Assembly (NCBI GenBank): GCA_026770705.1
Contig: JANJGN010000018.1
Coordinates: forward strand, 51,522,001 to 51,586,000
Direction: 5' to 3'
DNA length: 64,000 nt
DNA from: Isurus oxyrinchus
Lineage: Eukaryota
The position numbers and the translations under genes were made by a program. Shown here in pieces: positions 12,601 through 63,911 of the stretch. The notes beneath the pieces were generated by a model. That model was not told where the DNA came from. It saw only the letters and a program-made list of their open reading frames with translations, and made no database searches. How positions within the stretch are numbered: the first letter of the stretch is position 1; each line of letters starts with the position of its first letter.

Positions 12601-13562
12601 CTGAAAATTGCAGAGGATTAGGACATGTCTATCCCTGCAATGGAGCTGGCCAGGGCATATGACGCGAACTGCATCCTTAAAAAACCCTGGTGAAAATTGG
12701 AAAGCCTGGGAATGGGGTCGGAAATCCAGGAATCAAGTCCTGACCACCCTTTTGAAAGGTCCACGGAGTCTCCATGACTAAAAATCCAGCCCCTAGGAAT
12801 TAAAATAGTCCAAGCCACATTTCTGTAATAGCGAGTTAGTTTTTAAATCACCTTGTTACTTGGGCGAAAATCAGGGACTGTGATTTTCCTTATTAATGTG
12901 TAAATAACCGAACAATTCATGGCAAGAAAGATTTGCATCAAATTGCGAATTGCCATGAATTGCAGGACAATTTGCACCATCTGCCATTAGCCTTGTGAAA
13001 AAGGGACAATCTCCTAGTGAGTTAAGAAATTGCTGTATTTGTGCTGTTCAAATGAATTAAACTTGCTGCAGATGCTTAGGCCTTATACATAATAACAACG
13101 TAAGATTCTTAATGATGAGATTTATGTTCCTGCAATGCCATTGAACCTCTCTCAGCCCAGAAAGGCAATAACTGAAACTGCAGTTTCATTCCTGTAGATT
13201 CCTTGAGATTTTTTAAAAAAACTAAATTTTGTATTTTCTCTTTTTCTGTCCCTTTTTTCTGACTCTTAATCTAATCTTTCTTTGCCTTTCTTTATCTAGT
13301 TTGACCTATTTTCTTCACTGTCAATTCTTTGTTTATTTCTCTATCATTACATCTCATGGGTTTAGGAGATACACTATTGATTCCATCATTCACCAAGGTT
13401 ACCAAATGCCCTATTACTAGTGACAGCTCACACTTTCACCAATTTTTGACCCAAACAACTTTCAAGCTGAAGGATGAGGGAAAAAATCTAACAGGAAAGC
13501 CACTAGATGCCCTATTGCAGAAAATTCTGTACCATTGTGTAAAGCAAATAAACTTTCCTTAC

Positions 13563-13678
13563 CTTTCTTTGTTGGTGTCTCCCCTTTTTGTACCAGTAGA
13601 AGCTGAATATAAATATAGCTATCAGAATTATTACCAGTACTAAAATAATCCAGACATGGAGCTGCGATTTTGTGTGTG
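13563..13678 (-). CDS. Transmembrane exon (AHTKSQLHVWIILVLVIILIAIFIFSFYWYKKG...)
   Basis: tttttgcag|CA acceptor (phase 1), ~21 hydrophobic residues then basic residues, AAG|gtaagg donor. Confidence 0.85.
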
Positions 13679-13728
13679 CTGCAAAAACACAAAAGGGAAA
13701 TATGAATACCTTTGGTGAAAGCTGGGAT

Positions 13729-14411
13729 GGACAGAATTTTATGGTTCCCCATTGGTGTGTTTGCAAGTGAGGGGTGGCGAGGGGCAATAAAATTTGATGG
13801 ATGCCCTCCCACCTGCCCCAACATGTCTGCAATTTCACATGGGTTGGTGGTAGGGGGAGAGGTGGACCTGGAGGTCAATTATTGGTCGCTTAAGGGCTGC
13901 TAAAAGCCCAGCAGCAATTTTGAGGCTGGTGGGAGCAGTTCAAGGATGGGAAGTCCGGCAGATCATCCTGCTTGGGTCTCAGGCAGGAAAGAGGGGGAGC
14001 CCCTTCTGCCCAAGTTCCCCCTTGGATACTCCCTCTCTGCCTGGCCTTGCCATCACAACCCCACCCACCTCTCCCCACCACCCCAGGGGCTCTCCTTCTG
14101 CCTCCGCCATGAGACCTTGCACCTACCTGGTCCTGTGGGCTCCAGCACATTGACTCTGGGGACTGGGTGTAGTTCCACCAGTGGCCATTGCTCCCCGTGG
14201 TACTGCTGGGGCTACAGAGCTTGTGACCAATTAGATTGATTGACAGATCTCTGAAATAGGACTTCTGCCTGAGTAAGGGGCAGATGTCCCATCTCCAGCC
14301 AATTAATGTCCCTCAAACCATTAAATGACTGTGGGGCTGCCCTGATCAGCATTCTCTGCTGATTCTTTCAGTGGCTGGATGGGAAACACTGCCATTCAAA
14401 AATTCCTGCCC
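13729..14411. mobile_element. Harbinger-type MITE
   Basis: GGACAGAATTTT...AAAATTCCTGCCC termini. Confidence 0.6.
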
Positions 14412-14899
14412 CTTGTGTTCTTTTTTCTTTTTGTAGTGTTGTTAATTATGAATTTGGATCAGATAGTCCTGGTTTTGTGTGAGTTGTTCAGAAATATTAA
14501 AAAAGTAAAGATAATGCCAGAAGTCTCTTTTTAAGGGAAATCAGTTATTCCTGTCCACCTATTTCTGCATTTTAAGGTTATTAAGTTTTTCAAAGAATTT
14601 TGTTTATTAGAAGACAAGCAAATATCAGAACTTTAATAAAAATCTAACTTGTCCCCAATTTAATCTTGTATCCAGTCGATTGTATGCAAAGATATAGGAG
14701 CCTGCATTAAGCAAATTTTTAAAATATTTTTAAAGCAAATTTTCTGCCAGGTCGAGAGGGATGCTCAGAATGGTGGACCATGAAATGTGCCAAAAGGTAT
14801 TTTGTGTTCCCTCATTTACATGAAATATAGATTAGAAAAGTACTGAGAGTTTAGAGGCCCTAGGGGAGATGGATTCAGAGCAAGAGGCTAAAAATGCAG

Positions 14900-15215
14900 A
14901 TGCAATTCCTTAACGAGTCATCTGCACTTCCTCTGAAGCAGATTTTTGTACCTTAATTTTTGTGCTAGGTTTGTTGGAGGACGAGCTGGAAATTTGCAAG
15001 TGCTTTGGGCGGTCAGCCTATTCTCATACAGAGCCTCAGAAGTTATGTTGATGGAGGCGATTCAAAGGAGAGCTGCCACTTTTGGACCCTCTCCACAAAA
15101 GGCATCTGTCAGGGCTGCATGGGAAGAGGTGGTGAATCAAGTCAATGCAATTTCTAATATTAATAGATCTTTTTTCTAGGTGAGGAAATAAGTTCAACAT
15201 CATAAGGAAGATTGT
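14900..15215 (+). mobile_element. Harbinger Myb/SANT ORF remnant
   Basis: AAWEEVVNQVNAIS..NRS trihelix motif. Confidence 0.5.
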
Positions 15216-15949
15216 TGCTTGAAGTATATGCTTTATGTTGTTTTTTGGCACACACAAATGCACCTTGGCCAGTTGCATACTCACATGGCACGCTTCATCT
15301 TTCCAGGCCCTTTCCAGTCTAACATTAACATAATGCCACCCATTTTCAGGCATGCCATTGCTTTCACATATCCCAGAAAAACTAAATCTATGATGGCAAT
15401 ATGATTGTTTGGCGTTGAAAGCCATTTAGTTATTTTAAACAAATGCAAAATATTGTGAATATTGGAAATCGGAAATGAAAATAGAAAATACTGAAAATAG
15501 TCAGCATGTCAGGCAACATATGTAGAGAGAGAAACAGAATTAACATTTCAGGTCAATGACCTTTCAACATAACTTGACCTTCAGTATAACCAACTCACTT
15601 TACTTTAGAGCTATCCTTGCCTTAGTTCCATTTTAGTAATTGCTTCATCCAAAGCTTTAATAAAGCACTTATCTTTTACTTCAAGTATCAAGGACTGCAA
15701 GCTTCAATGATTTTTAGATACCAACCACACTCCATCCTTCTTCATCTGCAATTTCTTTTGACCTCATTCCTCCTTCCAATCTTAACCTTTGTAGTGTTTT
15801 TACTATGCACTATGACCTTCCTGCCTGTGACCCCAAATGTTCACTCCTCAGCAAAGGCCTCAGCTTCATCCCCTTATTCTCCCACCTCAATGGCTCAACT
15901 CTCAAGCTCGACATGATGCTGAGATCTTCTTCCAATGCCTTTGCAAGTT

Positions 15950-16908
15950 TATAAGATTATTATATTTTGGACTGTAGCTTAAATTTAGCATAAATGAAGG
16001 GATCATGTGACCTTTACTGAAGTCTGCCTGATAGTAAGCTTGGGTGGTTTGATTGTTAGAGTTTGATGAAAGGCTTAGACTATTTTACTGAGAAGAAGGT
16101 GCAAGGTATTTATACTTGGAGAAAATGGCAGCAGTTCCTGAATTTACCAAGGGCTGACCCAGAGTCTCCCAAAGTCCCAGAAAAGTGTTGTAGGTATCAG
16201 GTTGAAAAGTTAAGTTGCAGATTATCCATATACTTCTAAGATGACAGCGAGCTGGGATCAAGGATAGCTAATTAGCATTTTTACCTAGATACAAGGTTAA
16301 TGTGTTTCACTTTGCCATGTGGAAGAGGACAAGGAAGCCATTTTTGAGGTCAAGTTACAGGGCTCCCTACAACTCAATGAATATCTCAGATAGACAGCAG
16401 TTCTGTGTGGTCAGCAGAGAGAAGAGGCTGCTTGACCTTGTGAGCTACTACAGCCAGATGTGCAGGGAAGATGGTCTCTAGTCAAAAAGATGCATCCTGA
16501 AGCCTTCCACAGATTCTGGGAGATTTGTTCTAGCATGGCCAGGGGGTAGAAAAATCATCACAATGGGCTTTACTGCTGCTAGTGGCACCTGCAGATGGTC
16601 ATTTCAAATTACTACTGGGCGAAGCAGGGATTCGGGAACCCATTGGAATGAGCTATGGACTATTTGCTACAAGGACTAATTCTGTGAGGAGTGTAACGTG
16701 TGATAATATAAGAGGAGTATATTCCTCTCTGTAACTTAAAGTATAAGTTGCCTACAGAAGGAATAGGGTGTTTAGTCGATGGTACTTTTAGTTATTTATT
16801 ACAGTAAAAGTTTTAAAATGTGCAATGTTGTCAAGTCATTCTTTCAGCTATCAACTGGAAGTTTCAATTTCTCATTAAAAGTTATTGATCTCAATGGAGA
16901 TTGTAACA
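15950..16908 (+). mobile_element. Probable solo LTR
   Basis: Ends ...TTGTAACA with LTR-like composition. 5' end and TSD not resolved. Confidence 0.3.
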
Positions 16909-17103
16909 GCGCTCATATCTTTAACAAGAAGTCCTCACCTGCAAAGTAGACAATAGAGTTCTGATGAAAGGTTAACAATGTGAAATATAAATGCTGTTCT
17001 CTCCCTAGCATTTTTGGTTTTCATATAACTCATTGATATTGATAATGAAGTTCATTTTCTTGCCTTCAAGCTTTATTTATATTCTCATTTGTATCAATCT
17101 TAC

Positions 17104-17439
17104 CCTGCACTGTGAGGCAGGTCTTCCCAATGTCTTTGCTATTTCTGAATGTATAAAAGACACACTGATAACATCCTTCATCTTCAAGCTTCACTCCAGA
17201 CAGTACAATAGTGGACACTTGTACCTTTGATGATATGGAAGTAGCTCTACCAATAAAGGACCCAGAAAAATTCGCTTCAAGTTTTCCACTGAATGTCGCA
17301 ATATTGTCCTCAGATTGACCATTCAACTTTTGCCACGTGACCTGTAGAATATCTTCTAAATGTGAAGTACAGCTGAAGGTAACATTTCCACCTAAAACTG
17401 CTGTCATATTCTCCTGCGTCTCCACATTTATATCCTTTA
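17104..17439 (-). CDS. Ig V-set domain exon 2 (tandem duplicate) of CD200-like gene
   Basis: tttgacag|TA acceptor, CAG G|gtaag donor, 336 nt, phase 1/1. Highly similar to 19984-20319. Confidence 0.92.
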
Positions 17440-17554
17440 CTGTCAAATGGAAAATGAATACAGTAAAACATCAATTGTTTCACAAACATTTTCTGTAAAG
17501 TATTTATCTCTGAAGTACTCAGGGGTTTACAAACTACAGAGGACTTTGAATGCC

Positions 17555-17860
17555 AATGTGGCTTTGATAGTACTTTTATCTCTGAGTCACAGAGTTGTTG
17601 GCTCAAGTTGCACTTCAGAAATTGGCTGCAAACTCAATATACTCTGACACTTGCAGTGCAGTATTGAGAGAGTACTGCACTATTGGAGGTGCCATCCTAC
17701 GGCTGAGATGTTGAACATAGGCCCCATCAGCCCTCTCAGGAGAATGTAAGATATATCATATTTGATCAAGAGTGGGAGAGTTTCCCCCAGTGTTTGGTCA
17801 ATATTAATACCTCAGTGAACATTAATAAAATAGATAATTTGGTCATTAATTGGTTGGCGC
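17555..17860 (+). mobile_element. SacSINE1/DeuSINE copy (duplicated with the V exon)
   Basis: tRNA-like head and Deu-like core (ggaggtgccatcc..ggctgagatgttgaac). Same position relative to exon V2 as the 20444 copy is to V1. Confidence 0.7.
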
Positions 17861-18416
17861 TGGGCCCTCAATTTTCTCTGGTCCACAGCAGCCACACCAA
17901 AGGGTTTTAAAGTGTCTGTTCAATGCTGTTACCAAGGATAGCTTTTTACTTTCCTGAATATGAAGTCAGGAGGGGTGGGAGTACTGATCTTCATCTTCGG
18001 TCTGGCCATTGTCCTACCCATTGTGATGTGACTGCCGGCCCACCAGTCACATCCTGATCACACGAGGACCAATTATACCTGATTCTCTTCTTCAGCTATG
18101 GCATGATAGGTTATGTTTGTTGCAGAGTTTGCTGGGCAAGAATCAATTGGTAGGCTGTGTGTTTGAAATACTATCCACTCCATATTTCAGTTTGCATTTG
18201 GTCCCTGGTTGCTGTTTTATAATTCATCCCTAGTATTCTTGCACTTTAAACTGCAACATCTTAATTTTTAGAAGGTTGTTTGTACTATTTTTTCCCAGTT
18301 CTAGTAGCAAAAATGGAAGAGATGGACTGGATGAAAATTAGATGGGAAGTACAATCGTTTTTTTTTCTTTCTTGTGCTGCTCACCATTTCCTGCCCAAAG
18401 TTTGAGGGGTAATATT

Positions 18417-19234
18417 GGGCAGAATCTTCTTGAAATGTCAGGGGTTTTGCCTGCCAGCTGGATAGCCAGTGAGAGGCCTGCACAGCCTCTCTTCAGAAGG
18501 CTGACTGAACCACACGTGAATCAAGCAGTAGCAAGGCCAATGGGGAGCCTTCTCCAGAATCAAGACTCTGGGGGGCGGAAGTCTCACCTACAAAGAGCTG
18601 CCAGTCAATCAGAGGCTGGCAGCTCTTGTGCTTAGCAGCGCCACTTGGTAGTAGGTGGTGGCGGCTGCTGCAAGGATAGGCACCAAAGACCCAGGGTTGA
18701 GGAGTGACCCAAACCACAGGAAAATAATTGGAGGGGGGGTGCAGGGGGAGGGGGGGCAGTGGTGGAAGGAGGGGGGAAGGGTGCAGAAAGGGGGGAAGGG
18801 GGGATAGAGGGTGGTGTTTCGCAGGGTGGAGGTTGTGGGGAGAAAGGTTGGCAGCAGCAAGGGTTTGGCTTTGAGTGGGCCTCTCCTTCTCAATGACCAG
18901 TTCTGGCAATGCCTTTGATTGAGAGAACACCTTTCTCCACCCCAGGAGATAACAAGCTGGCCATGTGGTTATAGCTGCTGTGCACTCTGCATGGTGACAG
19001 GCCTACCTACCTCTGGGTTAATACCAGCGGCAGTGGAATGAGGCCCTTAAGTGGTCATTCACTGGTAACCTAAGGGCCTTAATTGACAGTTGAACAGGAA
19101 GGCCTTCTCATCCAGAACTTCATTCTGGCAGAGGTGGGAAGGTGGCAGAGCTCAGGTATGTCACCAACCCAACTAATTGAATGCACTTTCCACCTGCATG
19201 CTTGTCACCAGAGAGAGAGCAGAAGATTCTGCCT
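18417..19234. mobile_element. Harbinger-type MITE with a G-rich tract
   Basis: TIR GGGCAGAATCTT/AAGATTCTGCCT, TSD ATT. Confidence 0.75.
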
Positions 19235-19983
19235 ATTGGCGCTACACTTTGGAAATTTAGCTGCTGTTTGTTAATTTTGTTAGTGAGCTATGACAGAAAT
19301 ATATGACAGTATTCTATTGCTTTTAAAAATCAGTTTTAAACATGCTCTGCTATGCCCTCTGGGACATAACTCAGCAACAGCCCACCTGTGGTCTGCTTAA
19401 ACTGATGAGCAGTAAAGTGTCAAAAACCTTTGATTCAATACTCAGCTGTATACTTTACTCCATGGCAAAACAGACATCTCAAATTCCAATCAATGAATCT
19501 TTACAATTAAGTTGGAACCAAAAAATTCACTTAAGTGCAATTTTCAATACAAATAGACAATGTACAGAACCTTCCAAGGTGTAAAATATAGTTTAAATGT
19601 TGTGCTTTAAAGTAATGCAAGGTAAAGATAAGATAGGTTATTTATCTCAAATAGGAAGCACAGATTTCACAAGTATCTTGCAAGATTCCTCTGTCAACAT
19701 GAAATAGTGGATTTGTGGGACAGACTCCCAGAGAAGCTATTAATTCAAAGCCAAAGATACAGTTAAAAGAAACTGGGTCAAATAGCCATTGAGGAAGAGT
19801 TGTAGAGGTAGTAATAAATCTGTTTAATTCATTTGAGAATTTGAAAGAAAGTACAGGGATCTTGGGTAAGAAACTCACGATTAAAGTAGCCATATATGGA
19901 CAATGGAAGGAGATGGACTGATGAGATGAACAGCCGTTTTTGGTTTCAAACTTTTTTTATATTCTTATTTGTATCATTCTTAC

Positions 19984-20319
19984 CATCTACAGTGAGGCAG
20001 GTCTTCCCAATGTTTTGGCCATTTATAAATGTATGGAAGATACACTGATAACATCCTTCATCTTCAAGCTTTACTCCAAACAGTACAATAGTGGACACTT
20101 GCATCTTTGATGGCATGAAATCAGCTCTACCACTAAATGACCCAAGTATATTGGGCCCATATTTTTCACTAAATGTAGCGATATTGTCCTCAGATTGACC
20201 ATTTAACTTTTGCCACGTGACCTGTAGAATTTCTTCTAAATGTGAAATACAGCTGAAGGTAACATTTCCACCTAATACTGCTGTCATATTCTCCTGCGTC
20301 TCCACATTCAGAAGTTTTC
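19984..20319 (-). CDS. Ig V-set domain exon 1 of CD200-like gene
   Basis: tttcacag|GA acceptor, GAT G|gtaag donor, 336 nt, phase 1/1. B-strand Cys (TFSC), C-strand Trp (VTWQK), DEGCYQC and the extra G-strand Cys (KTCLTV) typical of CD200. Confidence 0.92.
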
Positions 20320-20443
20320 CTGTGAAATAGAAAAATATAGTAAAACACATCACTTGTTCCACAAACATCATCTGTGATGTATTCGGCTCTAAGGTGTTCA
20401 GAGATATTCATAAGGTATAAGGTATTACAGTGGACTATTCTGT

Positions 20444-20810: not shown

Positions 20811-22706
20811 ATACTGAATCAACTGATGCTAATGATAACATTATTACATTATATTCAACTCACAAGGAATTAAATCTAAACAATCTCTACTTCTTGAAAC
20901 ATGATTTGATTCAGAAGAATCAGCTGGAGAACTTTTGCTTCGTGTACACTTATTCAGCTTGACAAAATTGGGAGCAGTGGTTATTTCATTGTCAATCATA
21001 ACTGATATGTCGGAAATCGTTTAATTCAAGTGAGCACACCTTAAGTTCTTATCTGAACAGCTGTGTAAGAGCCACATAGAAGATTTCTGATTCATGGTAG
21101 CAGCCTTGATTGTCAATCTGGGCAATTCCCAACCACAAGCAGCATGAGGTCCCTGCCTAATTGGGACTCAGGGGCTGGGATTATCCTTCCAGCACCAGTA
21201 TTTTAGCGGAACAGGACTTCCGCTTGACCCGGTTTCGCAGTCTGGGGTTCAAGCCATATGCACAGCATGCTTCTGGCAGGATTCTCCCCACTAATAGGGA
21301 GCCTGCCATTGAAATTCCAGCAGTTATGTAGAAGAAGAGGTAGCCGGGCAGTTACTGGACCAGAAATGCCTTGAAGGTGGGAAGATATGTAACAAGGGCT
21401 GGAATAAAGTTGTTAATATTTGGATGTATTGCCACTTCCTTTTCTCAAATACTTTTAGAACTAATAAATTAACGTGCTTGAGGAAAATAATTTTCCTTTC
21501 AACATTGTTATGATTTTTTTCCCCTGGATTTCTCTCAGCAACATTGTGGGGATTAATCTTTAATTCCTGGAGACTCCAGGTCAACCCTGGATGGTTGGCA
21601 GCTGCAGACTGGAATGGAGGCATTCTGGAGGGTGGTGCAACGACCTCCCATTGCAGCAGGTAACTGGCGTTTTCTCAGCAATTTGTCCAACTCTTCACGC
21701 AGACTCTATTCCTGCAATTCTAGATGACTACTCATTCTTTCTTCCCTCTGTTCTTTCAGACACCACACCTTATCTGTCAGGACTTCTCTCCCACAATTTC
21801 TTCATCATATTATTTTCATGGTCATGTCATACTTGAAACATAATTACTGCACTTACCTGTGTTTACACATATTCAGAGGCATGTGTTTGCACATCATGAA
21901 AGAATGAACCAAATATTAAAGCAACAGTCCTGACTAAATTGAACAAACCAGCAATTTTGTGTATATTTTTGTGCAAAGACTATGTGCAACATGGTGACTT
22001 TGAAGTGAAACTCCCCTGAAACACAAGATAGAAAATTATTGGGATTTATCATCAACTATAATAATACAAAAAGTCAGCTCCATATATTGATCGAGTTTTG
22101 TTTAAAAAATAGCCCATTAGTTAAATGCAAATTCTAAGACATTTTTGATATTTTGTGTATTTCTGTTATGCATTAAGACATTTTTAATATGTCTTGTATT
22201 TCTGTTTGTGAATAAAATGTTACCGGTTGTGGTGTGGACCAGCATGCAGAGCTTAACACCGGATGGGGGGAATATGGAGTGCGGAGGACATTGGGACAAA
22301 GGGAGAGGAATTCTGACCAAAGACATCACTGCTGAGGCTCATATTGAACTTTTTAAAAATAAAGACAGTTTCAGCTAAACAGACAGATGCACACAGACAT
22401 GTCAGCACTTGTCACTGGGGTGGTGGCTCACCGCCAGGCACCCTGCCTACAACAGATCTCAAATGTTGCAAGAATGGAGAATGCAAAGGAAGCTTTAAGT
22501 TTTAATGTGTTATTTGGCACTTTGAGTTCACATTTCTAGGTTGTGTGGAAATGTGGAAGTGTGGATGTGATTGCTAAGTGTGTCTTGTCAATCACCAATG
22601 TGTCAGCAGAGATTGCTGTTTGAGGTTTTAACAATCTGTAAAGACAAAGCACTAATTGCCCTGTTCTTTTATATGGAAGCAGGATTCCTTTTGTTTTAGA
22701 CTAAAT

Positions 22707-23288
22707 GGGCAGAATTTTTCCGTCGGCGAGCTGACGCAGGATGACATCGGGCGGAACCCCTGACATCATCCCGCCCCATTTAAATATTCAGGAAGGCAGA
22801 CGGACAGCGCGATCAGCTGTCCACCCACCGACCTGTCAATGGCCAACTGAGGCCATTGACAAGATCATTAAGCCAATTAAAGGACCTGCCCGTCCAACCT
22901 TAAGGTTGGCGGGCAGGCCAGGAGCGTGGGCTTCTGAAAAAAACATGAAACCTCATCCACTGGCGGGATGAGGTTTCATGTCTGTTTTAAAAAAGTTTAG
23001 TAAAGTTTTTGTGATATTTATTAACATGTCCCATCTTGTGTGACATTGTCACAGCACTTAGTCTCAGGGAGATGTGTGCTCTTTCGTGCGCACTCTGACA
23101 GTTGGGGAAGCCCTCCCCCTCTACACAGGAAGCGCATAGCGCTTTCCGTTGGGTGGCCCACTGGGCGGGCCTTAAGTGGACCGCCCACTTAAAATGGTGA
23201 CAGGGCCCGTTTTGGTGGCGGCGATCGGCTGCCCGCCCACTGCCAAGCCGGTGGGGCCTGCTTGCCCATCAAGGACAAAATTCTGCCC
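22707..23288. mobile_element. Harbinger-type MITE
   Basis: Perfect TIR GGGCAGAATTTT/AAAATTCTGCCC, TSD AAT. Confidence 0.85.
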
Positions 23289-23432
23289 AATATGTTAAGT
23301 TTTTTTTTAGCAATTAACTTTGTTTTGAGATTTTAATTTCGGGAGTTTAAGACAAGACACGTATCTGGCTTTATTTGAAACACATGCTATTTTTCTCTGC
23401 TTGTGTGTGGAATAAATGTAATTTGTTTCCTT

Positions 23433-24120
23433 GGCTAGAATGTTGCACTTGGCGGGTAGGCTCGGTGGGGGCAGTCGGGAAGCTGACCGCCACCTGTGAT
23501 CGGCATCGCACCGCGATTTCACGCTGGTGGGCCAATTAAGGCCCGCCCAGCATGAAATGTGAGTGGCAGTGCTCAGCGTGCCTGTGTTGGAGGTGGACAG
23601 GGGTGTTGGGGTGGGTGGGGGGGGTAGAGGGCAAGTATGAACTTGTGCATGCGTGCGAAATTGCGCTGCATAATCTCCCTGAGGCATTGAAGCTGCCTCA
23701 GGGAGATGAAGAAATATATTTTAAAAATAGCAAAAATTAAAATGTTATAAAACATGTCCCCTCATGTGACCTGTCACATGAGCAGGGACATGTTATTAAT
23801 GAAAAAATAAAAGTTATTATTTTATTTTTATTTGCTTTTTGAAACTTCATCCTACCTGTGGATGAGGTTTCCAAAAAAATGCAAAGGCCACTTGGCCTTT
23901 TCGTCTGCCTGCCAACCATTAGGTTTGACGGGCAGTGAAAAATTTGCATTCATTGATTACTTAATGGCCTTAACAGGCCTTTAACTGTTGGCAGGCATGC
24001 TGCCGGCTCTGGCGTGAACCCGCTGACTGAACTATTGCATGACTGCGTGTTGACATCGGCATGCTTGGCCAACATCAATGCGTGTCATTTCATGCTCGAG
24101 TGAAGCGAAAAACTCTGCCC
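23433..24120. mobile_element. Harbinger-type MITE
   Basis: Degenerate TIRs, TSD CTT, homologous to 503-1106 in the opposite orientation. Confidence 0.75.
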
Positions 24121-24491
24121 CTTGTGTGAATGATGTTTGTGTGCTTCAACCTTTGATGACTGTAATGATGATGTACTGGACAGGTTTCTACTTGAAACAG
24201 AAAACTTTATTACAGAGAACTCTTTCAGAAGCTACAGGATCCATGACTAGAAAACCACAACCCTCGCCACCCAGATTACCAGTGCCTCGGGCTCATTCGT
24301 CAAGAACGAACACTTAACTCCTAATAGGCAGTAGGAAAAGCTATACCTTCAATTACTACAGCGATTCTATTCCCCAAATTATGGTAGTAGTTTCAGTTTC
24401 AAGTTTGAAAGCTAACAAAAGGGAAGAGTAATTAATAAAGTAAATTTATCAAGTTATGAACCTGGAGTCATGATTAATGGTTAGAATCATG

Positions 24492-24964
24492 GGGCAGAAT
24501 TTTGCCCTTAGTGGCATGCGGGTGGACAGCTGACCCCCGCCGTTGAAACAGAGCACACTGCTCCCTGAGACGAAGTGCTGTCTCAAGGAGATCAGTGACA
24601 GTCTGAAAAACTTAAAAAATAGAAAAATAAAAATATTATTAACATTTCCCCCTCAAATGACAATGTTACACGAGATGGGACATGTTAATAAAAATGACAT
24701 AAACTTGATTAAACTTTTTAAAAATGGACATGAAACTTCATCCTGCTGGGGCTCCTGGCCTGCCCGCCAGCCTTAAGCTGGGACGGGCAGGTCTTTAACA
24801 ATCTCAGTTAGCCTGGCAGACGGCTGATTTCGCTGTCCGCCCACCTTCCTAAAAATTTAAAGGGACCGGGATGACGTCGGGAGGAACCCCCGACGTCATC
24901 CTGTGTAATTTTCCAGTCGGCGAGTGGGCCCCGCCCCCAAATCGCCGACGGGAAAATTCTGACC
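24492..24964. mobile_element. Harbinger-type MITE
   Basis: GGGCAGAATTTT/AAAATTCTGACC, TSD ATG. Confidence 0.8.
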
Positions 24965-25499
24965 ATGATTCCAGGTTATTTTGATAAGTGCGCAAATTCT
25001 AATCTGGATATGAAATTACACATGTAAAAATGGAGTAGTTTTTAAATGTTTGATAGGGCAAATTGGAATCAGGATTAGAAACCTTTTACCAACATTAAAA
25101 GGTTCTTTTTTGCTGCAGGAGCCATTGGAGTTCTTCCTCTAAAATAAATCGGGAAAGGAATACGTAAAAATTTAAAATACCTTTCTTTGTCCAGAAGGAA
25201 ACAGCTTGAACTGGTTTGTGTTCGTGGGATGCATTTATTTCCTGTTTTTAAAAATACACTTGGGAGGAAAAAAGAAGAGCTTGGAATTTTGAAACAATTG
25301 GAAGAGTGATTTAAAATATTGAGCAGAACATCCTGAAATCTGAAGGAGTTGTAGGAAAAAGTATATCACAAGAGATCGAAACCAAAAAAAGTCTAAAGGG
25401 AGAGATTCAGGTAATTTTCTTTGTTTAGAATAAAAACCCAGTTCAAACTCTAGCCACAGAGTATGGCAATGTTTTTGTTCTCTTTTTAAGAAGAGGGGG

Positions 25500-25720
25500 T
25501 TGATGAAAACAGCGCTAGTCCATATGAGGGCTTTTTTCCTGCCCTCTTTCAAACCAGCAGGAATGGTGCAGAGGTGACCAGGTGATAGTTTAAAACTGTG
25601 AAGGTATGTGTGTTTGAATGCCTTTACAAAGGACTCTATAGCACAGTGGACATGGCTAGCCCTATGGTGTACAGTTGCCCAAGTAGGCAAAATAGTTCCA
25701 CGTTAACCAGATTAAGTTAG
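25500..25720 (+). pseudogene. Integrase C-terminal (GPY/F) remnant
   Basis: Frameshifted translation GDQVIV..FECLYKGLYSTVDMASPMVY..K*FHVNQIKL. Confidence 0.6.
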
Positions 25721-26849
25721 CAACGTTTAAACCAAGGCACCTCACCGACCAGAAACTGTTATGTGCATGATGGGTCAAATCATACCAATAGTGTGCAATT
25801 GTAGGGAGCCTCCACAAGTGTCATAACAGGGTGATTTTGATAACGGCGGTGACAGTGTAAAAGATGCAAATGCAAACCCACTACTGCTTGTGAGATTCCA
25901 GCAACAGCTATTATGATCTTTGAACGGAATTAGACCCTGAGTGCTTCTGGTTGCCATCTCCATTCTAGTACCCTCAGAGGGAAGAGTGGGAAGTACAAAG
26001 AAAATCAGCAAGGAAGCTCGAATATGTGGAGGAGGGGAAGGACATCGAACCACAACAATATATGGCCGTTGTGATCCAAAGGGATCATTACAAACACCCA
26101 GTCGCGACATCCCATGGTGCATGATTATTCGGCTCCAGTTGCTCCCCTGTTGCACATGTGACGATCCTAAGCACATCAATCCGAGACTCATTAGCCTTCA
26201 GGGGGAGATCTCTGTAAATTCCCTACGTCACTGGCAAGTGGGACCCTTGTTGCTTAAGGCCACAGCAACCAGTGAGGGGAAGGTGCCAGCACAACAAGCG
26301 TTGAAGATTTGAAACCCACAACTCCCGGTCCGTTGGGCAAAAATTATATTTCTCGACTGGAGGAAAAGGGGAAGGGAGACTCCCAAATGACAGTCACGAG
26401 TGTTGTGGGTAGGAGGGCAATATTAAATAATTGCTCTAAAAAGACAGTTGTGAGTCGAACTGATGTAGATGTGGAATGGGGAAAACTGTTTTGTACACAG
26501 TGCTCCCCATGTACAAAAGAGAGGTGTAGGCCTGAGATAATATTCTGGGGAGGGGAAAATGCCCCCAAGGCTGCAAATAATAAGAGTCAGAGATATGGAG
26601 ACTACTGGATTATCAAAGGGTGGGAATTCTTGGTGACACCAATAAGACATTTTGTTGGAAGCAATTCGCAGTTGAAGGGGTAGGCATCTATGTGTGTGAG
26701 GAACTGTGCTGCTCAAGTAGCATGATGAGCACAGTGTGGGGCATCCAGGTGACACTGCCTAGGAAGCCTTTCCTCACACAAGTAGTAATGTGAGATGCCC
26801 CAAACCATACCCCAGGGCCAAAGAATGGACTGGTTGTTATACCCACACG

Positions 26850-28866
26850 AATGGTACAATATCACATATGCACCACGAGGTAGTGCCAGTGACGATGAAT
26901 TCAGTGGATATGGGACTACCCCCCAGGCATAAACATAAAACCTGAGCATTATACAAATGAATGCTGCACCCAGTTTTGAGGGAATTCTGGGAACGAACCA
27001 TCATTGCAATTGATGAGGATGAGTGCGCTAGTCTGTATGAGGGTTCATGGAATCAAACAAAATCTCACTCGTAGGCAGGTATAACATAGCTCGATTAACG
27101 ATATTTAATGAACCATATTTAACACCGGGACACAACCTGTAAATAGTTTTTAATTCAGCTACTTTAGGCAAAGTGGTAATTAGAAATAGGTTAGAAGTAG
27201 GTTCAAGGAAAATATTATATTGGATAAATAATGTGGAACAGAATGAATTAGATGAAGAACAAATTATGACCATGCATTTGCAAGATGCAGTGGTGGGAAT
27301 TGGAAAGGCATGACTACCGCATGAATGAAATTCTAAGGAAGGATAAAAATGCCTCTGTGGAAACTGCTGAAAATTATGTTTGCACAACATCTGGTTCTTG
27401 GTTAGTGGAACAGGCCCATGAAAACCTCCAAAGGGTTGTAAAAGGGAAATTGCCTTTCCGGGTCACTGATAAACATCTTAGGGCTGTTTCCACTTACCAA
27501 GTTACCACTGATACCTGTAAAATCAGAGGACTGGTGCAGGTATACCCAGTGAAACGTGATTTTTTATTATTCATTCATGGGATGTGGGTGCACTGGCTGG
27601 GCTAGCATTTATTGCCCATCCCTAATTGCCCTTCAGAAGATGGTGGTGAGCTGCCTTCTTGAAACACTGTAGTCCACAGTGCTTTTGGGGAGGAAGTTCC
27701 AGGATTTTTACCCAGTGACAGTGAAGGCATAGCAATATATTTCCAATTCAGGATGGTGAGTGGCTTGAAGGGGAACTTCCAGGTAGTGGTATTCCCATAC
27801 ATATGCTGCCCTCATCCTTCAAGACGGTAGCGGTTGTGGGTTTGGCTGTCTAAAGAACCTTATTGATTTCTTGCAGTGCATCTTGTAGATAGTACACACT
27901 GCTGCCACTGTGCATCAGTGGAGGAGTGTTTGTGGATGGGGTGCCAATCAAGCAGATTGCTTTGTCCTGGACAATGTCAAGCTTCTTGAGATTTTTGGGA
28001 GCAGCACTCATCCAGTCAGGTGGAGAGTGTTCCATCACACTCCTGACTTGTGCCTTGGAGATGATGGACAGGCTTTGGGGAGTCAGGGGGTGAGTTACTT
28101 GCTGCAGGATTCATAGCCTCTGACCTGCTCTTGTAGCCACAGTGTTTTGTGGCTAGTCCAGTTCAGTTTCTGGTCAATGGTAGTCCCCAGGGTGTCAATA
28201 GTGGGAGATTCAGTGATGGTAATGTCACTGAATGTCAAGAGGTGATGGTTAGATTTTCTCTTGTTGGAGATGGTCATTGCCTGGCACTTGTGTGGCGTGA
28301 ATATTGCTTGCCACTTGTCAACCCAAGCCTACACTGGATGAGTGCAATCAAGGGAACAGTGGCATGGACATGCTAGGGTTGGTTCTCTATTACCCTGTTT
28401 TAAAGGAAGGGGAGAAACCTATCCTCATTTTAGAGTTGAAAATGTTGGGGTAGAAAGTCAGGGTCACATACCACATTATGACCAACACCCTAGGTATGTG
28501 GCACAAGTGGACGAGATTACTTGGGTAGCCCCAGATTTGTGTGGGTGCACTCGGAGAGGGGATGCTTTTGTTTGCCCATATAATATAACTGAAAAGGCAG
28601 CACCAACCTGTGGGTTCACTTGGAATAAGGAAGGGTCCAACATGGTGACCCAGGGAGCAGAGTTCCCTGCCCATGTGGCATATAAAGGGAAAAGGCAATG
28701 TTCTATTACAACCATACAACGGGAATACCAGTACGAGGATCTGATCTGCCCTATCCAGGATGGAATGTTTTGTTTTACCCAAGCTTCACCTGTCAGATTG
28801 GGTATGCATATATTCTTGAATGTTTGTGCTTATGGACAAGTGAATATTACCAAAGGGACGGGATAA
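26850..28866 (+). pseudogene. env / class I fusion glycoprotein remnant, split by a LINE and lacking a TM anchor
   Basis: Decayed furin site RRQV*H (27070-27087), heptad region, then RVENVG..HPRYVA..DLCGCTRRGDAFVC..PTCG. Confidence 0.65.
27558..28328 (-). mobile_element. CR1/L2-superfamily LINE 3' fragment inserted into env
   Basis: Begins with a T-rich tail on + and carries MEHSP..W and IDQKLNWTSH motifs. env-like sequence resumes after it. Confidence 0.8.
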
Positions 28867-29218
28867 GGTGAATGGATTAGATTCACAAGTGCAGCAATGT
28901 TCGTATGTGAAATTAAACACTTAAGGGTGGATGCTATAAGACATTTTGATATTTTGTGTATTCCTGTTATGCTGTAAGGCATTTTTATTATGTCTTGTAT
29001 TTCTGTTTGTGCGTAAAATGTAACCAGTTGTGGTGTGGAGCTCAAAACCGAGTGGTGAGAACATGGAGCGCGGAGGACATTGGGACGAAGGGAGAAAAAT
29101 TCTCATCCAAGACATCAATGCTGATGCTTATATGGAACTTTTTAAAAATAAAGACTGAACAAGGATATAGACAAGTCAGGACATATCACTGGGGCGGTGG
29201 CTCACCAACAGACAGTAT

Positions 29219-29373
29219 GGGCGGGATTTTCCCACCCCCACCCATCATCAGGATTGCCAGGTCCCACCCATCATCAGGATTGCCAGGTCCCACCGAAAGT
29301 TAATGGACTTTTGGCTGAGCCGCTGCATCCCCCATGGTGAGACCCGCCATGGCGGGGCTGGAAAATCCCAGTC
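29219..29373. mobile_element. Short Harbinger-type MITE inside the 3' LTR (related copies at ~9438-9557 and ~49163-49292)
   Basis: GGGCGGGATTTTCC/GGAAAATCCCAGTC, TSD TAT, internal ~26-bp tandem duplication. Confidence 0.7.
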
Positions 29374-29445
29374 TATGTCAACCGAAACTGACCAAGACAA
29401 TGGCCTCTTGGGTACGTGTGAATGGCTTTCTCCCTGCCTTACCAA

Positions 29446-30510
29446 GGGGAGGTGATGACATAGTGGTAATGTTGCTGGACTAGCTATCCAGAGAACCAGA
29501 GTAATGCTCTGGGGACACAGGTTCAAATTCAAATTGAAGTTAATAAAAATCTGGAATTAAAAGTTTAATGATGACCATGAAACCACTGTCAATTGTAGTA
29601 AAAACCCATCAAGGAAGGAAACCTGCCATCCTTACCTGATTTGGCCTACATGTGACTCCAGACCCACAGCAATGTGGTTGACTCTTAAATGCACCCTGAA
29701 ATGGCCTAGCAAGCCACTCAGTTGTATCGATCTAGGCACCGGAAACAACAACGGCATTTTCAGCCCTGTCGATCCTGCAAAGTCCTCCTTACTAACATCT
29801 GGAGGCTAGTGCCAAAATTGGGAGAGCTGTCTCACAGACTAGTCAAGCAACAGCCTGACACAGTCATACTCCCGGAATCATATCTTACAAACAATGTCCC
29901 AGACACCATCATCACCATCCCTGGGTATGTCCTGTTCCACCAGCAGGTCAGAGGTGGCAGCACAGCAGTATACAGTCGGGATGAAGTTGCCCTGGGAGTC
30001 CTCAACATCAACTCTGGAACCAATGAAGTCTCATGGCATCAAGTCAAACATGGACAAGGAAACCTCCTGCTGATTACCACGTACTGCTCTCCCTCAGCTG
30101 AAGAATCAGTGCTCCTCCATGTTGAACACCACTTGGAGGAAGCACTGAGGGTGGCAAGGGTGCAGAATGTACTCTGGGTGGGGGACTTCAATGTCCACCA
30201 CCAAGTGTGGCCCAAGAGCACCACTACTGATCGAGCTGACCGAATCCTAACTAACATAGCTGCTAGACTGGGTCTGCGGCAGGTGGTGAGGGAAGCAACA
30301 AGAGGGAAAGCATATTTGACCTCATCCTCATCAACCTGCCTGCCACAGATGCATCTGTCCATGACAGTATCGGTAGGAGTGACCACCGCACAGTCCTTGT
30401 GGAGATCAAATCCTACCTTCCCATTGAGGATACCCTCCATCGTGTTGTGTGGCACTACCACTGTGCAAAATGGGATAGATTTTGAACAGATCGAGCAACT
30501 CAAAATTGGG
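29446..30510 (+). mobile_element. LINE 5' end: tRNA-derived head followed by an AP-endonuclease domain
   Basis: A/B-box-like head (TAGTGG...GGTTCAAAT), then ORF 29722-30564 with ESYL, GG.AVY and VGDFNVHH motifs. Confidence 0.8.
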
Positions 30511-31390
30511 CATCAACAGCAGCATAAATGTACTTGTCAAAAAATGACAGCTTTCTATGAGTAAAAAACAAAATTAAATAACTTTGATTACCACTGCATT
30601 GATTATGAGAAAGCATTGAAGCAGCCCAATTTTTGTTTTGTTTTGTTACTTATTTGAAGACTTCTTGTGATAAGAGGGACACCCACATTTTGAGGAATTC
30701 TTTGGGAAAAACCCAGCTTCATAAGCAAGATGATGTCACATACTCACACAAAAAATTAAAAGTCCTAATATTGTTCACGCACCAGTGTACCCGCTGTTTA
30801 GATATCACTATGAAGATTTAAATTGTCAACACTTAGAGGGCCTTAGGTCAGAACAATTGTTTCCTTACAAAGAATATTCACCCTTTGTTTTGAACATTAT
30901 TTGTGGATATCTGTCAATTAAACAGAGAGAATTCAAGAGAACAAATTAAAAAAAAATCACTGATAAAGAGATTCAAGAATTTCAAGCACAAATGTATAAA
31001 CATCATACTCTGATGTTGACACATTTGGCCATTAGAGACCTTACTGACTCCAATATCATAACATCCTTTTCCCATTTGGAACATCTAAGAATTCTTTCGA
31101 ATCAAGAGGGGCTTGTTGTGGAATTCACTTAGTCCATGAAAGGGTTAAAAATTTAGCTAAAAAAAAAATACAGCTAAAAGTCTTCTGTGAGAAATACACA
31201 TTACTTTCACAGAAACAGGCCAGAATTTTGCCCTTGATGGGCAGGCGGGCCCGACCGACTTGCTGGCGGGCGGGCAGCTGATTGCCGCCGCCAAAATGGG
31301 CCACGCCGCTATTTTCCAAGGGCGGGCCAATTAAGGGGAACTGGCAGTCTGTAAAAAGAGTGGCCAGGCAGCCTACTTGAGGCATGCACC

Positions 31391-34285
31391 ATGGCCACTC
31401 ATGGACAGAGGGAGGGAGGACTGAGTGGAGGACAGCATGAGCAGGAGAAGGGGGTCAGGCTGCAGGAGAGGCCAGCGGGGGGCCACTGTGACCCTTGCTT
31501 CTCCAATGCATGCCTTGCTGTCCTCCTCCAAGTGGTTTCCAGCTGTCGGGAGGTATTGTATCCGGATGATGGGAGGAGGAGTGCTCCCCATGTCACCAGG
31601 CAGGCATGGGAGGAGGTTGGTGATGCTGTTAGCGCCCATGACGATGTGCAGCGCACAGCAACACAGTGCCGCAAGCACTTCAATGATTTGCTGTGCTCTA
31701 GAAGGGTGAATACCATGTCAGCCTTGGCCATTTGACCCAGCTGGTAGCCTTAGCCTTTGAGCCCACACTACCGCCCCCCCCCCCCCCCCCCCCCCCCACC
31801 AGCCCCCCACCACCCCTCCCACCCCACCTCAGCCCCCACGTTTTACTGTCGTTACTGCATTGGGCATTTGGTGCACGCTGGGGTGGGCAAACAGATAGTG
31901 ACCATGCTTACATCAGCCTTAGCGGTTGAGGAGAAGATGGGTTCTCCTCGCAGCATATGTTAGTGTTTGTTGCATTTGAGTAGTCTGGGGGCAACCTGCA
32001 GGGGAGGCAGCTAGACACATACTCAGAACTCCAATACATGTCTTATTGATGGTGATGAGATGGTGGAAGGGGAGCCTCAAGGTGTTGTGGCCAAGAGCCA
32101 TCTGCTGGCATCAGCGCCACACCTAGTTGCACCTCCTTGCCATGGGCGCTAAGACCTGTGTGTTATTCAAAGTGATGGACACCAAATGTGTCCAAGGTGG
32201 CCATTGGGGGAGGGGATTGGGAGCAGCCATACTACCTTCTGGTGCCTGATGACCGCTGGAGGCCTCAGATGGGCCAATGTGGTTGGGGTGTGAGTTGTGC
32301 GTGCAGAGTACATGAGCGATCAGCCCCATAAATCCTCTTCTCTGTTCTGCAGGCAAAAACTGAACACAACCTCAGGGGGTGCCAGAGGATTGGTGGTGGG
32401 CACACCGTGCTGCAGCACGTCACCACCTACGAGGAGCAGGTCATGGAGCTGGGAAGGAGGCAGGCAGCCAGGGCGGCAGGTGTCGGCAAGGCTGGGGTCC
32501 AGCGGCCAGGTATTTGAGGGCCACAGTCCCATCCACTCTGTCTGCCCACCATCCAAACCACTGATGGCTGCTGCAATTTTTAATGCTGAAACAATGCTCT
32601 TGCACAGACTGAGACACTCTGACGTGTGGGTCATACACAAAGGTCCCTCGTCCCCTTGAGGAAAGCATCTCCACCACCTTCCAAAGTCACCTTATCCCAT
32701 TTGTGACCACGATCAGCATGGCCTAACATGCCAATGGTATCGCTGCTGCACATCCAAAGAGTTATTGCATCTTAGGGGGTTTGGGACCTCCAGCACCCTT
32801 TCAGCCAGTGTGCCTCACAATACTCTGTCCAAAAGGTCCTCAGCACTTCAGCTGTGAACCTCATGGCACTCAAGTTAAATAAATGCCACCACGTTACTTA
32901 TCCCTGCGCCAAGGGGAAATGTTGCCTTCTGTCCACCCAGTCTATGCCCCTCATAACGGTATGAAGGTCAATAATGTGACCTGTCAATCTCCTGTGCTCC
33001 ATGGCAAATGTCGCAAGTGTTTGCGATGTTTCCTCATAACTCCAACTCTCCAGGCCAGCATGTATCCAGGTCAGGAACCTCTGCACTCTCTCCACTCCAA
33101 TGGCACATAACATTCCATGTGGCATTTCTGAGGCCATCTGACCAGCTTGTCTGTATGCGCGTCTAATGTTTGGGCCTCCTCTTGACTCTTTTCCATCCCA
33201 TCAATGTTCGTCTACTTAGGTTATTGAAGGGTGAGCGACTTATGAGGCTGGGAGGAGAAAGGGATAAAAGGTGTTAATGACTGAACGCTAACTGATGCAC
33301 TGTCCTTGTTGTTAATTTCAGTATCACCATCGCATGGCCGCGGCCAACAAGACCGGAGCCCCCCCTCCACACCTGAGGGCCAAGACGTGCAACTTGCGGC
33401 ACATCATTTCAGCCATTAAGGCACAGCGCAGCCACAAACACTTCTGTGGGGAATGTAACGTCAGCTCATGTCCCAGGTCACTGTGGAGAGGGCACTTCAG
33501 AATTGCTGGAGGAGATGGCAGGAACAGAGAGTGCCAATGGCGCCAGCAGCCAGAGGGCTGCAGGGGACCAGGCACATGCTGAGTCTGGCAATGATGATGT
33601 GCCTCTGGAGATGTCATCAATGCAGCAGCTGCAGGGCAAGCGGCAGGAATCGTGTTTATATCTGGCAGGGTTGCATGAGGGTATGCTTCAGTAGGTCTCT
33701 GTGGTGGATGAGTCCAAGCAGAGTGCACGTGAAGGCATGAACCTCAGGGCAGAGCTTCAGGTTTCCTCCACTGAGAGATTGGCGGCTCTCATGGAGAGGG
33801 GGTTCGATCAGATGGAGAATCTTCTGTTTGGGTTACGTTCTGACCTGCAAGCCCCCACAGCGGTAATGGCCACGGCTGGTCATTCCCAATGTGGGAGATG
33901 TTGTGGGCACCAAGTGTCGGTGCTCGGTGCACATGCATCTGTGTTGAGCAGGGAGGTCCAATATGACCTCACGTCGGCGCAGCAGTTGCCTGTTGTTGCT
34001 GCAAGCTCCTCTCAGGGCGCTCCGGATGAGGGCAGCAGCTCCTTCGCCCCTCTGCCAGTCAACGGTGCTTCCGTTGAGGCTGCGACAACTGGAGCGGTGC
34101 CAGTTCTGGAACTGGCCACTCCCTCCCACACGGGGCCATCCCAGACTCCATGGGCTAGAGGATGCCCACCAAGGTCATCGAGGCCAACAGGACAGCAGAG
34201 TCAGCAGGCTGTCTCACAAGCCACTCCGAGCGATGGGGCGGCACCTAGACGTAGCACCCGAAAACGTAAGCATAAGGCACGTTAG
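31391..34285 (+). pseudogene. Harbinger Myb/SANT-like DNA-binding protein (spliced, disrupted)
   Basis: FSNACLAVLL..V...REVLYP..AWEEV..AVS..RTATQCRKHFNDL. Donor at 31706, acceptors near 32352 and 33321. C-terminal basic RRSTRKRKHKAR. Confidence 0.75.
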
Positions 34286-34573
34286 GCACTCCATGGCTAT
34301 GTCACTGGTGATTTTGTGTTGGCCTTAGAATAGGCAACAATATACTTATGTTTGAAATGGAGAAGTTTCTGTTATATTTTCTGACCATGGCTGAGGGTAT
34401 TTCCTTTGTGCTGCATTTTTCTTTTCCACAGGCATATCATGAATGTTTGAGTGGACATTAATGTTTCTGCACTAAGCCCTTAGTTGCAGTTAATGAGGTG
34501 GAAGATGTAGCACCTAAATGCCATATGTGGAAGCGCCAGGCAATGCTGCTCCTGCTGATCCATGTGTGTGGAG

Positions 34574-35790
34574 CTAGCTGAAGGTTGTTTGGATTAAATT
34601 GTCCCGGGTATTCCTGCCTCCTTGGTGTAGTAGCAGGTCGGCGTGCTGCCCCTCATCATTTCCCTGTGCTTCCTCATCCTCTGAGCCACTGCTGGATACA
34701 TCATGTGCAGCCTCATCCACTGTGTCAAGGTCTTCATCGTCAACTGCATCCCCCCTTTCCAGCGCAAGATTGTGCAGAGTGCAGCATGCTACCACTAACA
34801 GAGAGACGTGATCTGGGGGGTACTGCAGTGCGCCCCCTAAGCAGTCCAGGCAACAGAAGTGCATCTTGAGAAGACCGATTGCTCTCTCCACCACAGCCCT
34901 TGAGGTGCCCTGGGCTCCTATTGTAGTGTTCCTCAGCTTCTGTTCTTGGATAACAGAGAAGCGTCATGAACCACCTTCTGAGGGGATAGCTCTTGTCACT
35001 CAGCAGCCAACCATCCAGCCAGGCTGGAGCACTGAAGAGCCCCGGCACCTGGGAGTGTCTGAGGATGTAGGCGTCATGGGAGCTGCCTCAGTACCTTGGA
35101 CAGACTTGCAGAATCAATATCCTGTAATCACTCACTATCTGCACGTTCATGGAGTGGAAGCCCTTCCTGTTGACAAAGGCACCGGGCTCACCTGCTGGCG
35201 CCTTGATGGCCACATGTGTGCAGTTTATTGCACCCTAGACAAGGGGGAAGCCAGCAATGGCTGCGAAGCCTCTGGCTCGCTGTGCCTGACTTGCCTGGTC
35301 ACAGCGGAAGTGGATGAAGGTCAATACCCATCTGAACAGAGCGTCTGTAACCTGCTTGACACAAGTGTGGACAGCTGATTGGGAGACACCGCAAAGATCA
35401 CCCACCGAGCCCTGGAAGGAGCCAGAGGCACAGAAGTGGAGGGAAACAGTGAGCTTCAGAGCCACTGGCATGGGGTGTCCACCCACACAGTTAGGGGAAA
35501 TCTCAGGGCCTATCATCTGACAGATATAGTTGACTGTCTCCCTTGAGAGTCGGAGCTTCCTTCGGTACTGCACCTCAGTCATATTGAGGTAGCTGCTTCA
35601 CCGCCTGAATACCCTGGCAGCAGGATAGTGGAGTCTTCTGTGGCCTTTTCCACCTTGAATAACCTCTTGGCCCTGCGCCTGTCCTCCCTGGAGGCTGATT
35701 GTCCAGTCCTGGCCTCCTCCTTATTCTATCCCTCCCTTCCTCCTCAAGGGAGATGCCTCTAATGGAGATGTCAGAACCTATACCCCCAAG
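34574..35790 (-). pseudogene. Harbinger (HARBI1-like) DDE transposase, disrupted
   Basis: [60 protein letters not shown]. Confidence 0.88.
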
Positions 35791-53690: not shown

Positions 53691-53702
53691 GAGATTAGTT
53701 AA

Positions 53703-61620: not shown

Positions 61621-62355
61621 GGAGGCACCATAGATCCTCACATTGCACCTATGAATGCTTGACTCCAATCTGGCTTATGCCATGCACCTATCCTCTGTGA
61701 TAATGCTCCTGCCATGGAGATGCAATGGAGGTCCTTATAGTCACCCGTTTGGAGGAGAATGATGATGACATGCAGTGAGGACACTTGAGACCTTCACATA
61801 GCCTCTGCGAATGTCTGAGTCCTGCCTGGCTGAGGGCAGCTCACTTGCACACTGTGATCAGAATCATATCATGGAAACGCAGGCATGAAATTTTAGAAAC
61901 ATCTGATTCTTTGTCCACCTTCAGCCCCTGAGCCCCTCAGGAGCACAGTGTCACAGGTCACAGATGCTGAAGAGATGGGGGCCAGACCAACCTTAAAGAT
62001 GATGAGAGCACACAAAGAGAATGACAGAACTCTGTGACGTCTGCCTACAACATTCCGGCAGCAATGACAAGCACCGTCGAGGTGCAGACATCAGTAATGT
62101 TTCCAGGGAGTGTGAGGCCAGACAATCACTTTGGTCTGAAGGCTGCACAAAGCACAGGGAAAAGGCCCTGGACTAAGACATCTGACTTTATCTTGTGCAG
62201 AAAGTTTTCACATCTGAGTGACACGAACTTTGCTCATCAGAACAAGGAGCCATAGGCAGGGAGACATTCTTGGGAGTTTAATGACAATAGTGAACAGTAT
62301 GTACAAGTGATTAATACCTGTGCCCAGGCTGTGCAACCACATGTCCTTAACTTTC

Positions 62356-63841: not shown

Positions 63842-63911
63842 TTCTTTACAGCAGTTGTGTGCTGGAAGCACTGAGAGGTGTGCACATGGCTGGATGTATA
63901 GTCCATAGGTT

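Follow-up and report, generated by a model that had tools for sequence, protein, structure and literature searches.

A 64-kb stretch of the Isurus oxyrinchus genome (contig JANJGN010000018.1, positions 51,522,001 to 51,586,000; hereafter the window) carries an endogenous retrovirus (ERV) on its plus strand, with direct repeats at 22135-22440 and 28937-29214 marking its two sides. The copy is a dead, non-autonomous and internally deleted provirus that is inactive as a virus today. As a locus it is ordinary; the interest lies in the mixed make-up of reverse transcriptase (RT), integrase (IN) and envelope (Env) in its family and in a conserved host env gene.

The two repeats are 86.6% identical, with a Kimura two-parameter (K2P) distance of 0.148 over 277 aligned bases. 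Both are pieces of a long terminal repeat (LTR) that begins with TG, ends with CA and is about 800-830 bp long, to judge from the LTR pair of a fuller copy, C11a. The window keeps just the first 300-380 bases or so of each LTR. The 3′ LTR resumes at 29381-29447 beyond a short insertion, and no further part of either LTR was detected in the 64-kb window. The purine-rich run AAGGGTGGA (28923-28931) lies directly before the 3′ LTR, in the same position as in sister copies, and is a short, imperfect polypurine tract (PPT). The LTR divergence falls within the range of the other pairs in the family (K2P 0.10-0.23). It corresponds to about 340 million years at the rate assumed in PMC4422223 and to about 75 million years at 1e-9 per site per year, a rate that we assumed. 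As these dates depend on the rate, the provirus can safely be called old and nothing more precise.

Between the LTR pieces, the primer site and gag are missing. No RT homology was detected in the 64-kb window, and the place expected for pol holds AT-rich filler, of which the segments 22461-22700, 23293-23435, 24121-24491 and 24975-25460 are common to the closest copies in the genome (subfamily A, see below). In a search of the whole window, the integrase tail aligned with the GPY/F part of a more complete relative (E 0.007). Relatives have the two env halves directly joined, and thus the fragment of a long interspersed element (LINE) that separates them is a later insertion. Both halves match, in order, the intact 727-aa env of a relative, P0002 (E 5e-14 and 5e-13). 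The site homologous to the P0002 furin site is decayed and contains a stop codon, and the membrane-anchor segment is absent from the window. The initial annotation, made from the letters of the window alone, had described two LTR-like repeats, a PPT, an integrase GPY/F remnant, a series of env peptides and a LINE insertion in env, and all of these are borne out. It had correctly recognized an env here as well, starting at 27088, although homology already begins at 26800.

Table 1. Features of the provirus and its 3′ flank (window coordinates; HR, heptad repeat).
Feature	Position	Strand	Remarks
5′ LTR, only the first ~40%	22135..22460	+	Remaining LTR, primer site and gag deleted in this copy
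AT-rich filler without long open reading frame, in the expected place of pol, no RT homology	22461..25460	+	Three later insertions inside
Nested short repeat, like a short interspersed or miniature inverted-repeat transposable element (SINE/MITE-like), ends approximate	22700..23292	.	
Nested short repeat, ends approximate	23436..24120	.	
Nested short repeat, inverted relative to the first nested repeat	24492..24974	.	
Remnant of the integrase C-terminus (GPY/F), carrying stops and a frame change	25561..25731	+	Matches GPY/F region of fuller relative
Stretch specific to subfamily A, from integrase to conserved env	25732..26799	+	Spacer and, probably, the variable env N-terminus
env remnant: F2-like part, decayed cleavage site, fusion peptide, HR1	26800..27559	+	Several stops and frame changes
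LINE-like fragment within env	27560..28337	-	
env remnant: Cys-rich beta domains	28338..28850	+	Ends at ~330-bp deletion removing HR2 and membrane anchor
Short PPT-like run	28923..28931	+	Same place in sister copies
Initial part of the 3′ LTR	28935..29447	+	Short insertion 29215-29380; truncated at 29447
Later repeat DNA including LINE endonuclease remnant (PF14529)	29448..30564	+	Abuts cut 3′ LTR; outside provirus

The intact Env of this family is predicted to be an F-type class I fusogen with furin site, fusion peptide, HR1, beta domains, HR2 and anchor, and is likewise predicted to mediate membrane fusion. When an AlphaFold model of P0002 was compared with the PDB by Foldseek, the best 10 rows were all F proteins of respiratory syncytial virus, human parainfluenza virus 3 or Newcastle disease virus (NDV), with E-values from 2e-11 to 8e-10. 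In VIA, NDV F was the top match (Z 11.2, root-mean-square deviation (rmsd) 15.8, 360 aligned); measles F (Z 9.1, rmsd 10.4, 285 aligned) and foamy virus Env (Z 9.0, rmsd 5.5, 272 aligned) also matched. The BFVD matches included baculovirus F and Env models of walleye epidermal hyperplasia virus 1 (WEHV-1) and walleye dermal sarcoma virus (WDSV). Neither an immunosuppressive domain (ISD) nor a CX6CC motif occurs in the three frames of the window, in P0002 or in a second intact env, P0001. Pfam detected no fusion family, PF00523 included, on the window fragments, P0001 or P0002; a weak Baculo_F match was seen in one of 19 env homologues.

In profile comparisons the family env aligned with the env of WDSV (L133; 96%, 459 columns) and of snakehead retrovirus (SnRV, L105; 86%, 342 columns) better than with foamy Env (48%, 139 columns), with which it shares the Cys-rich transmembrane core. 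The gammaretroviral control aligned at the anchor only (15%, 41 columns). Among 121 reference frames searched with the family hidden Markov model, WDSV env (E 3.5e-8) and foamy env (E 1e-7) were best, and SnRV was weak (E 0.094). An F-like, non-gamma env had been proposed for the window from the outset, and these results agree with it; the likeness to foamy Env that was proposed alongside holds for the predicted fold, although the WDSV and SnRV envs align over more columns.

A full HMMER search with P0002 gave 42 homologues, and a word-indexed search gave none. We looked up 18 of the 42 by name (one of them, P0031, is nameless), and these include gene models from Heterodontus, Mustelus, Chiloscyllium, Pristiophorus, Heptranchias, Scyliorhinus, a skate and three frogs. 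In the frog Mantella aurantiaca, 16 gene models (the P0041, P0046-P0059 set), mostly of 677 aa, fall into one 90% cluster, which suggests that its env family is young and recently active. Some envs, P0008 and P0031, may carry an Ig-like domain at the N-terminus (a UniRef label and a weak V-set match, E 0.045).

Within the host genome (G000), all 150 scored matches of 957 candidates matched the window env fragment. The copies fall into three groups. Subfamily A, which includes the window copy, shares its whole interior; subfamily B has an env of about 75-80% DNA identity to that of the window, shares the LTR and has kept more of pol; and more distant, fuller elements carry protease (PR), RT, tether, RNase H, IN and env. 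The complete relatives combine an LTR, a tRNA-Arg primer site, a gag with a CCHC knuckle, PR-RT-tether-RNase H-IN and env. No RT homology was found on the sense strand within the 11 subfamily A loci fetched. Nine of these reach the end of env, of which six have the ~330-bp deletion of HR2 and anchor seen in the window, two keep the segment and one is partial. The flanks differ among the four copies with a visible 5′ LTR start (the window copy, C18b, C7a and C11a). The sharing of the deletion by copies at unrelated sites points to copying in trans after env had lost its anchor. We envisage that the Env of the complete relatives would be cleaved at the furin site, exposing fusion peptide and HR1 for fusion as in F proteins. 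Subfamily A, without an RT, was likely copied using the RT and integrase of such relatives, and its env without HR2 and anchor would no longer be an anchored fusogen. After insertion, the window copy lost further sequence and gained five repeat insertions. One subfamily A copy (L071, contig C18, 37.62-37.63 Mb) has an inverted LTR inserted inside it. Contig C26 holds a locally amplified array of dozens of decayed env-like matches (37-43% identity), most with stops.

The affinities of the family were assessed on its fuller members. Apart from SnRV and the lokiretrovirus anchor, the names given to the reference viruses rest on motifs and genome lengths. We likewise take SnRV to use a tRNA-Arg primer, the site itself being visible in L105. 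L105 was identified by a genome length as in PMC12193657 and an RT as in the SnRV row of the PMC7947760 supplement, and the loki anchor, P0085, nearly equals the Loki-Oja row of the same supplement. RT trees were built, the last of them with 13 of the 48 rows of the preceding tree left out (three short or poorly aligned host-genome rows, P0064 and nine redundant rows) and seven class II rows added. P0064 had changed position between earlier trees and is probably a chimeric gene model. In the RT trees the host-genome copies form a clade (100/100), including three (L100, L035, L034) with an env close to that of the window. The sisters of this clade are frog, coelacanth and other proteins (98/95), and the whole lies inside Retroviridae (100/98) and outside the lokiretroviruses. 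The frog and coelacanth 'NYNRIN-like' matches had been considered as lokiretroviruses, given that the hosts coincide, and this was ruled out by the sequences supplied with PMC7947760. Among the reference viruses compared, the RT is closest to SnRV (42%, 181 bits), against 31-36% (116-140 bits) for foamy, gammaretroviral and WDSV RTs and 30-33% (114-122 bits) for lokiretroviruses. Approximately unbiased (AU) tests, on groupings picked after the tree was seen, rejected the clade with lokiretroviruses (p=0.017) and did not reject it with SnRV (p=0.125), with foamy viruses (p=0.139) or in a Huo-like set with SnRV (p=0.116).

Other parts of the genome were compared in the same relatives. Pfam identified a dual RNase H (tether and second RNase H) and IN in P0063, the fuller loci were mapped by tblastn, and LTR pairs were found. 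The primer site matches the host tRNA-Arg(TCG), with 16 genome matches and none for a control pattern; ARAGORN called the primer tRNA as Arg(tcg) at one of four loci and left three unresolved. A CCHC knuckle is present in seven of 12 fuller loci, as it is in SnRV gag. Tblastn of SnRV gag against the gag of the clade gave no match save the knuckle of L023. A gag zinc knuckle and a GPY/F tail are reported for some Ovex1/SnRV relatives in PMC4299795, and the knuckle, together with the GPY/F remnant of the window, fits these features.

Taken together, we read the window copy as a single dead, internally deleted ERV, likely of a deep SnRV-related group with a predicted F-type env, whose subfamily likely spread with borrowed RT and IN; we put the probability of this reading at roughly 70%. 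RT similarity, the Arg primer site and the CCHC knuckle speak for the SnRV-like group, and the clade is probably SnRV-related. Several observations weigh against this reading, and they are taken here with the alternatives that some of them favour. As the window has no RT, the placement rests on relatives whose envs have about 75-80% DNA identity or are more distant, and the finding of the same env family on a second pol lineage (L023) means that env and pol are exchanged. The P0002 model is modest (mean predicted local distance difference test score, pLDDT, 58; predicted template modelling score, pTM, 0.43; residues 1-197 unreliable). Foldseek, a check that the initial annotation had itself proposed, matches F proteins with this intact relative but gave nothing at E 0.001 for the 153-aa fragment of the window (best E 0.064; the top 14 listed sub-threshold rows are all F proteins), and in VIA the fragment reached no Z of 5.

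The strongest alternative, unlikely in our view yet deserving of serious attention, is that the clade is unrelated to SnRV and forms a lineage of its own, branching at the base of Retroviridae or close to it, that kept a loki-type integrase and F-type env or gave that integrase to lokiretroviruses. No RT tree joined the clade with SnRV. In the last two trees SnRV fell into another starred group (96/98 and 98/98), together with foamy viruses and orthoretroviruses. The rooted tree puts the 11-row clade (98/95) outside a starred group of 24 rows that comprises SnRV, foamy, gamma, epsilon and class II viruses. The integrase is closest to that of lokiretroviruses (42-44% identical, 213-218 bits; other references at most 160 bits), and in the IN tree, which has no row for CGIN1 itself, the group that contains the clade takes in lokiretroviruses (82/84 and 84/85) and leaves SnRV apart. 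Those IN supports are unstarred, however, and the long branches of SnRV (1.2), foamy (1.4) and class II (1.5) in the RT tree may attract each other. The RT trees were also drawn without RTs of ERV-L, Ovex1, ERV4 and fish foamy-like ERVs, and the Huo-like grouping with SnRV was not rejected.

We consider it improbable that the two LTR pieces are independent insertions, or that two proviruses recombined to give this copy. The two pieces are nearest to each other by path in the LTR tree and yet form no clade, one solo LTR matches the 3′ piece as well (86.7%) as the two window pieces match each other in that comparison (85.6%), and a target-site duplication is uncheckable at this provirus. On the other side, the 5′ piece continues straight into internal sequence and the 3′ piece follows env and PPT, in the order of the sister loci with which the provirus is collinear, and the K2P distance is in line with other pairs.

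A foamy-like ERV is slightly less probable again, and the window provirus is probably not foamy. The alignment of env with foamy Env and the RT grouping left standing by the AU test speak for it, as does a GGGTG motif near the PPT, which PMC5210030 reports for fish foamy-like ERVs. The gags of foamy and fish foamy-like viruses lack the CCHC knuckle, according to PMC5210030, whereas the clade has one; the Arg primer site, the RT distance and the wider env match to WDSV and SnRV also disfavour this placement. The window provirus is not a lokiretrovirus, and a shark lokiretrovirus is very unlikely despite the F-type env, dual RNase H and loki-like integrase, given the AU rejection, an RT motif PQG...QYVDD instead of PFG...IYVDD, a search of the host genome with loki RT in which none of the 150 candidates scored, out of 13,720, exceeded 37% identity, and the absence of lokiretroviruses from all six cartilaginous-fish genomes reported in PMC7947760.

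The initial annotation was thus right about an F-like env and mostly wrong about a foamy or lokiretroviral lineage. The loki affinity fails for RT and has some support in integrase; the foamy affinity is disfavoured by knuckle and primer site and not rejected by RT alone. An RT tree from fuller copies, which it had suggested, places the clade within Retroviridae, neither with lokiretroviruses nor joined with foamy viruses. Its 'undescribed shark lineage' stands in part, as SnRV-like ERVs are already known from elephant shark (PMC4422223).

Among known systems, SnRV and its relatives (clade Huo, PMC6001957; CmiERV lineage I, PMC4422223) share with the clade the closest RT among the reference viruses compared, a single-CCHC gag, the env layout and an Arg primer site. 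They differ in that SnRV is separate in the trees, has another Arg isoacceptor and encodes a 1134-aa env frame, compared with envs of about 720-760 aa, a loki-like integrase and an RT-less window subfamily here. In the pol of SnRV (L105:2194-6390), inserted sequence separates RNase H from integrase; it carries two HxT/S-like motifs and may resemble a 2H phosphoesterase. Lokiretroviruses (PMC7947760) are similar in the tether and RNase H, in having the closest integrase and, by description and not by direct alignment, in an F-related env with an RXKR site; the RT here is inside the canonical retroviruses. Foamy viruses (Env structures 8RM0/8RM1, PMC11468914) share the F-like Env fold and the Cys-rich core, and are unlike the clade in gag, primer site, a longer env and distant RT and IN. 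The WDSV group (Epsilonretrovirus) gives the best env profile match, end to end, and its RT and IN are not related at clade level. Paramyxo-/pneumovirus F and baculovirus/errantivirus F are alike in fold, at only 9-14% identity and with no PF00523 match, the env here being on an LTR element. ERV4 is described as having neither zinc finger nor GPY/F in PMC4299795, whereas the clade has both.

Two intact env genes of the host genome are candidates for selection. P0001 (contig C11; L021:1576-3870, minus strand) is an open F-type env frame of 765 codons with an RKRR site, and a search of 20 kb showed neither an LTR pair nor remnants of pol. Of 1208 candidates in the host genome, 104 were scored and 48 matched; the next best match is 64% identical and has stops. 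It is identical at 683 of 754 positions to a Scyliorhinus torazame model and at 634 of 739 to Chiloscyllium punctatum GCC29952.1, both without gaps. When random substitutions were simulated, the frame stayed open in 0 of 2000 runs at 9% of sites and in 9 of 2000 at 5%. P0001 is therefore likely a host-adopted env gene, apparently single-copy, LTR-less and conserved in three sharks at 85-91% identity, and a candidate domesticated env. At 754 aa in the catshark and bamboo shark lineages, it would be a co-opted env likely missed by gamma-env-based screens. A second candidate is P0002 (L023:1651-3831 minus, contig C40). The provirus around it has LTRs that are 82% identical and a disrupted pol that belongs to another RT lineage.

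Lokiretroviruses and canonical retroviruses are argued in PMC9040795 to have acquired their envs independently, from the lack of similarity between them. Here one lineage combines a canonical RT and a loki-like IN with an F-type env that can be aligned to those of SnRV, WDSV and foamy viruses, and the idea that the ancestral retroviral env was F-type thereby becomes open to testing. It is conceivable, although we find it doubtful, that the clade represents the earliest-branching surviving true retroviruses, tied to lokiretroviruses by the shared IN and to SnRV, WDSV and foamy viruses by an ancestral F-type env, such that the first retroviral env was F-like and P0001, domesticated in sharks, would be an F-fold counterpart of syncytins. 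In the literature searched we found nothing on the F fold of SnRV-like or shark ERV envs, on a loki-like IN in this clade or on a conserved shark env gene; Repbase and subscription papers may cover them.

The host surroundings include V-set immunoglobulin (Ig) exons at 19984-20308 and about 17.1-17.4 kb, all on the minus strand, so that the provirus is antisense to them. They belong to an Ig-domain gene at 13462-20407 (minus), with two tandem V-set exons about 75% identical and a probable transmembrane exon near 13.6 kb, which may be CD200/nectin-like. The initial annotation's placement of the provirus in an immune gene intron is unproven. An upstream exon of this gene was not located in the contigs of four runs, which left 25576-26239 uncovered, and this proves nothing on an intronic position of the provirus. 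GC-rich stretches at 31300-35600, 52800-53700 and 59000-64000 contain frames that presumably resemble a Harbinger-type transposase and Myb-like proteins.

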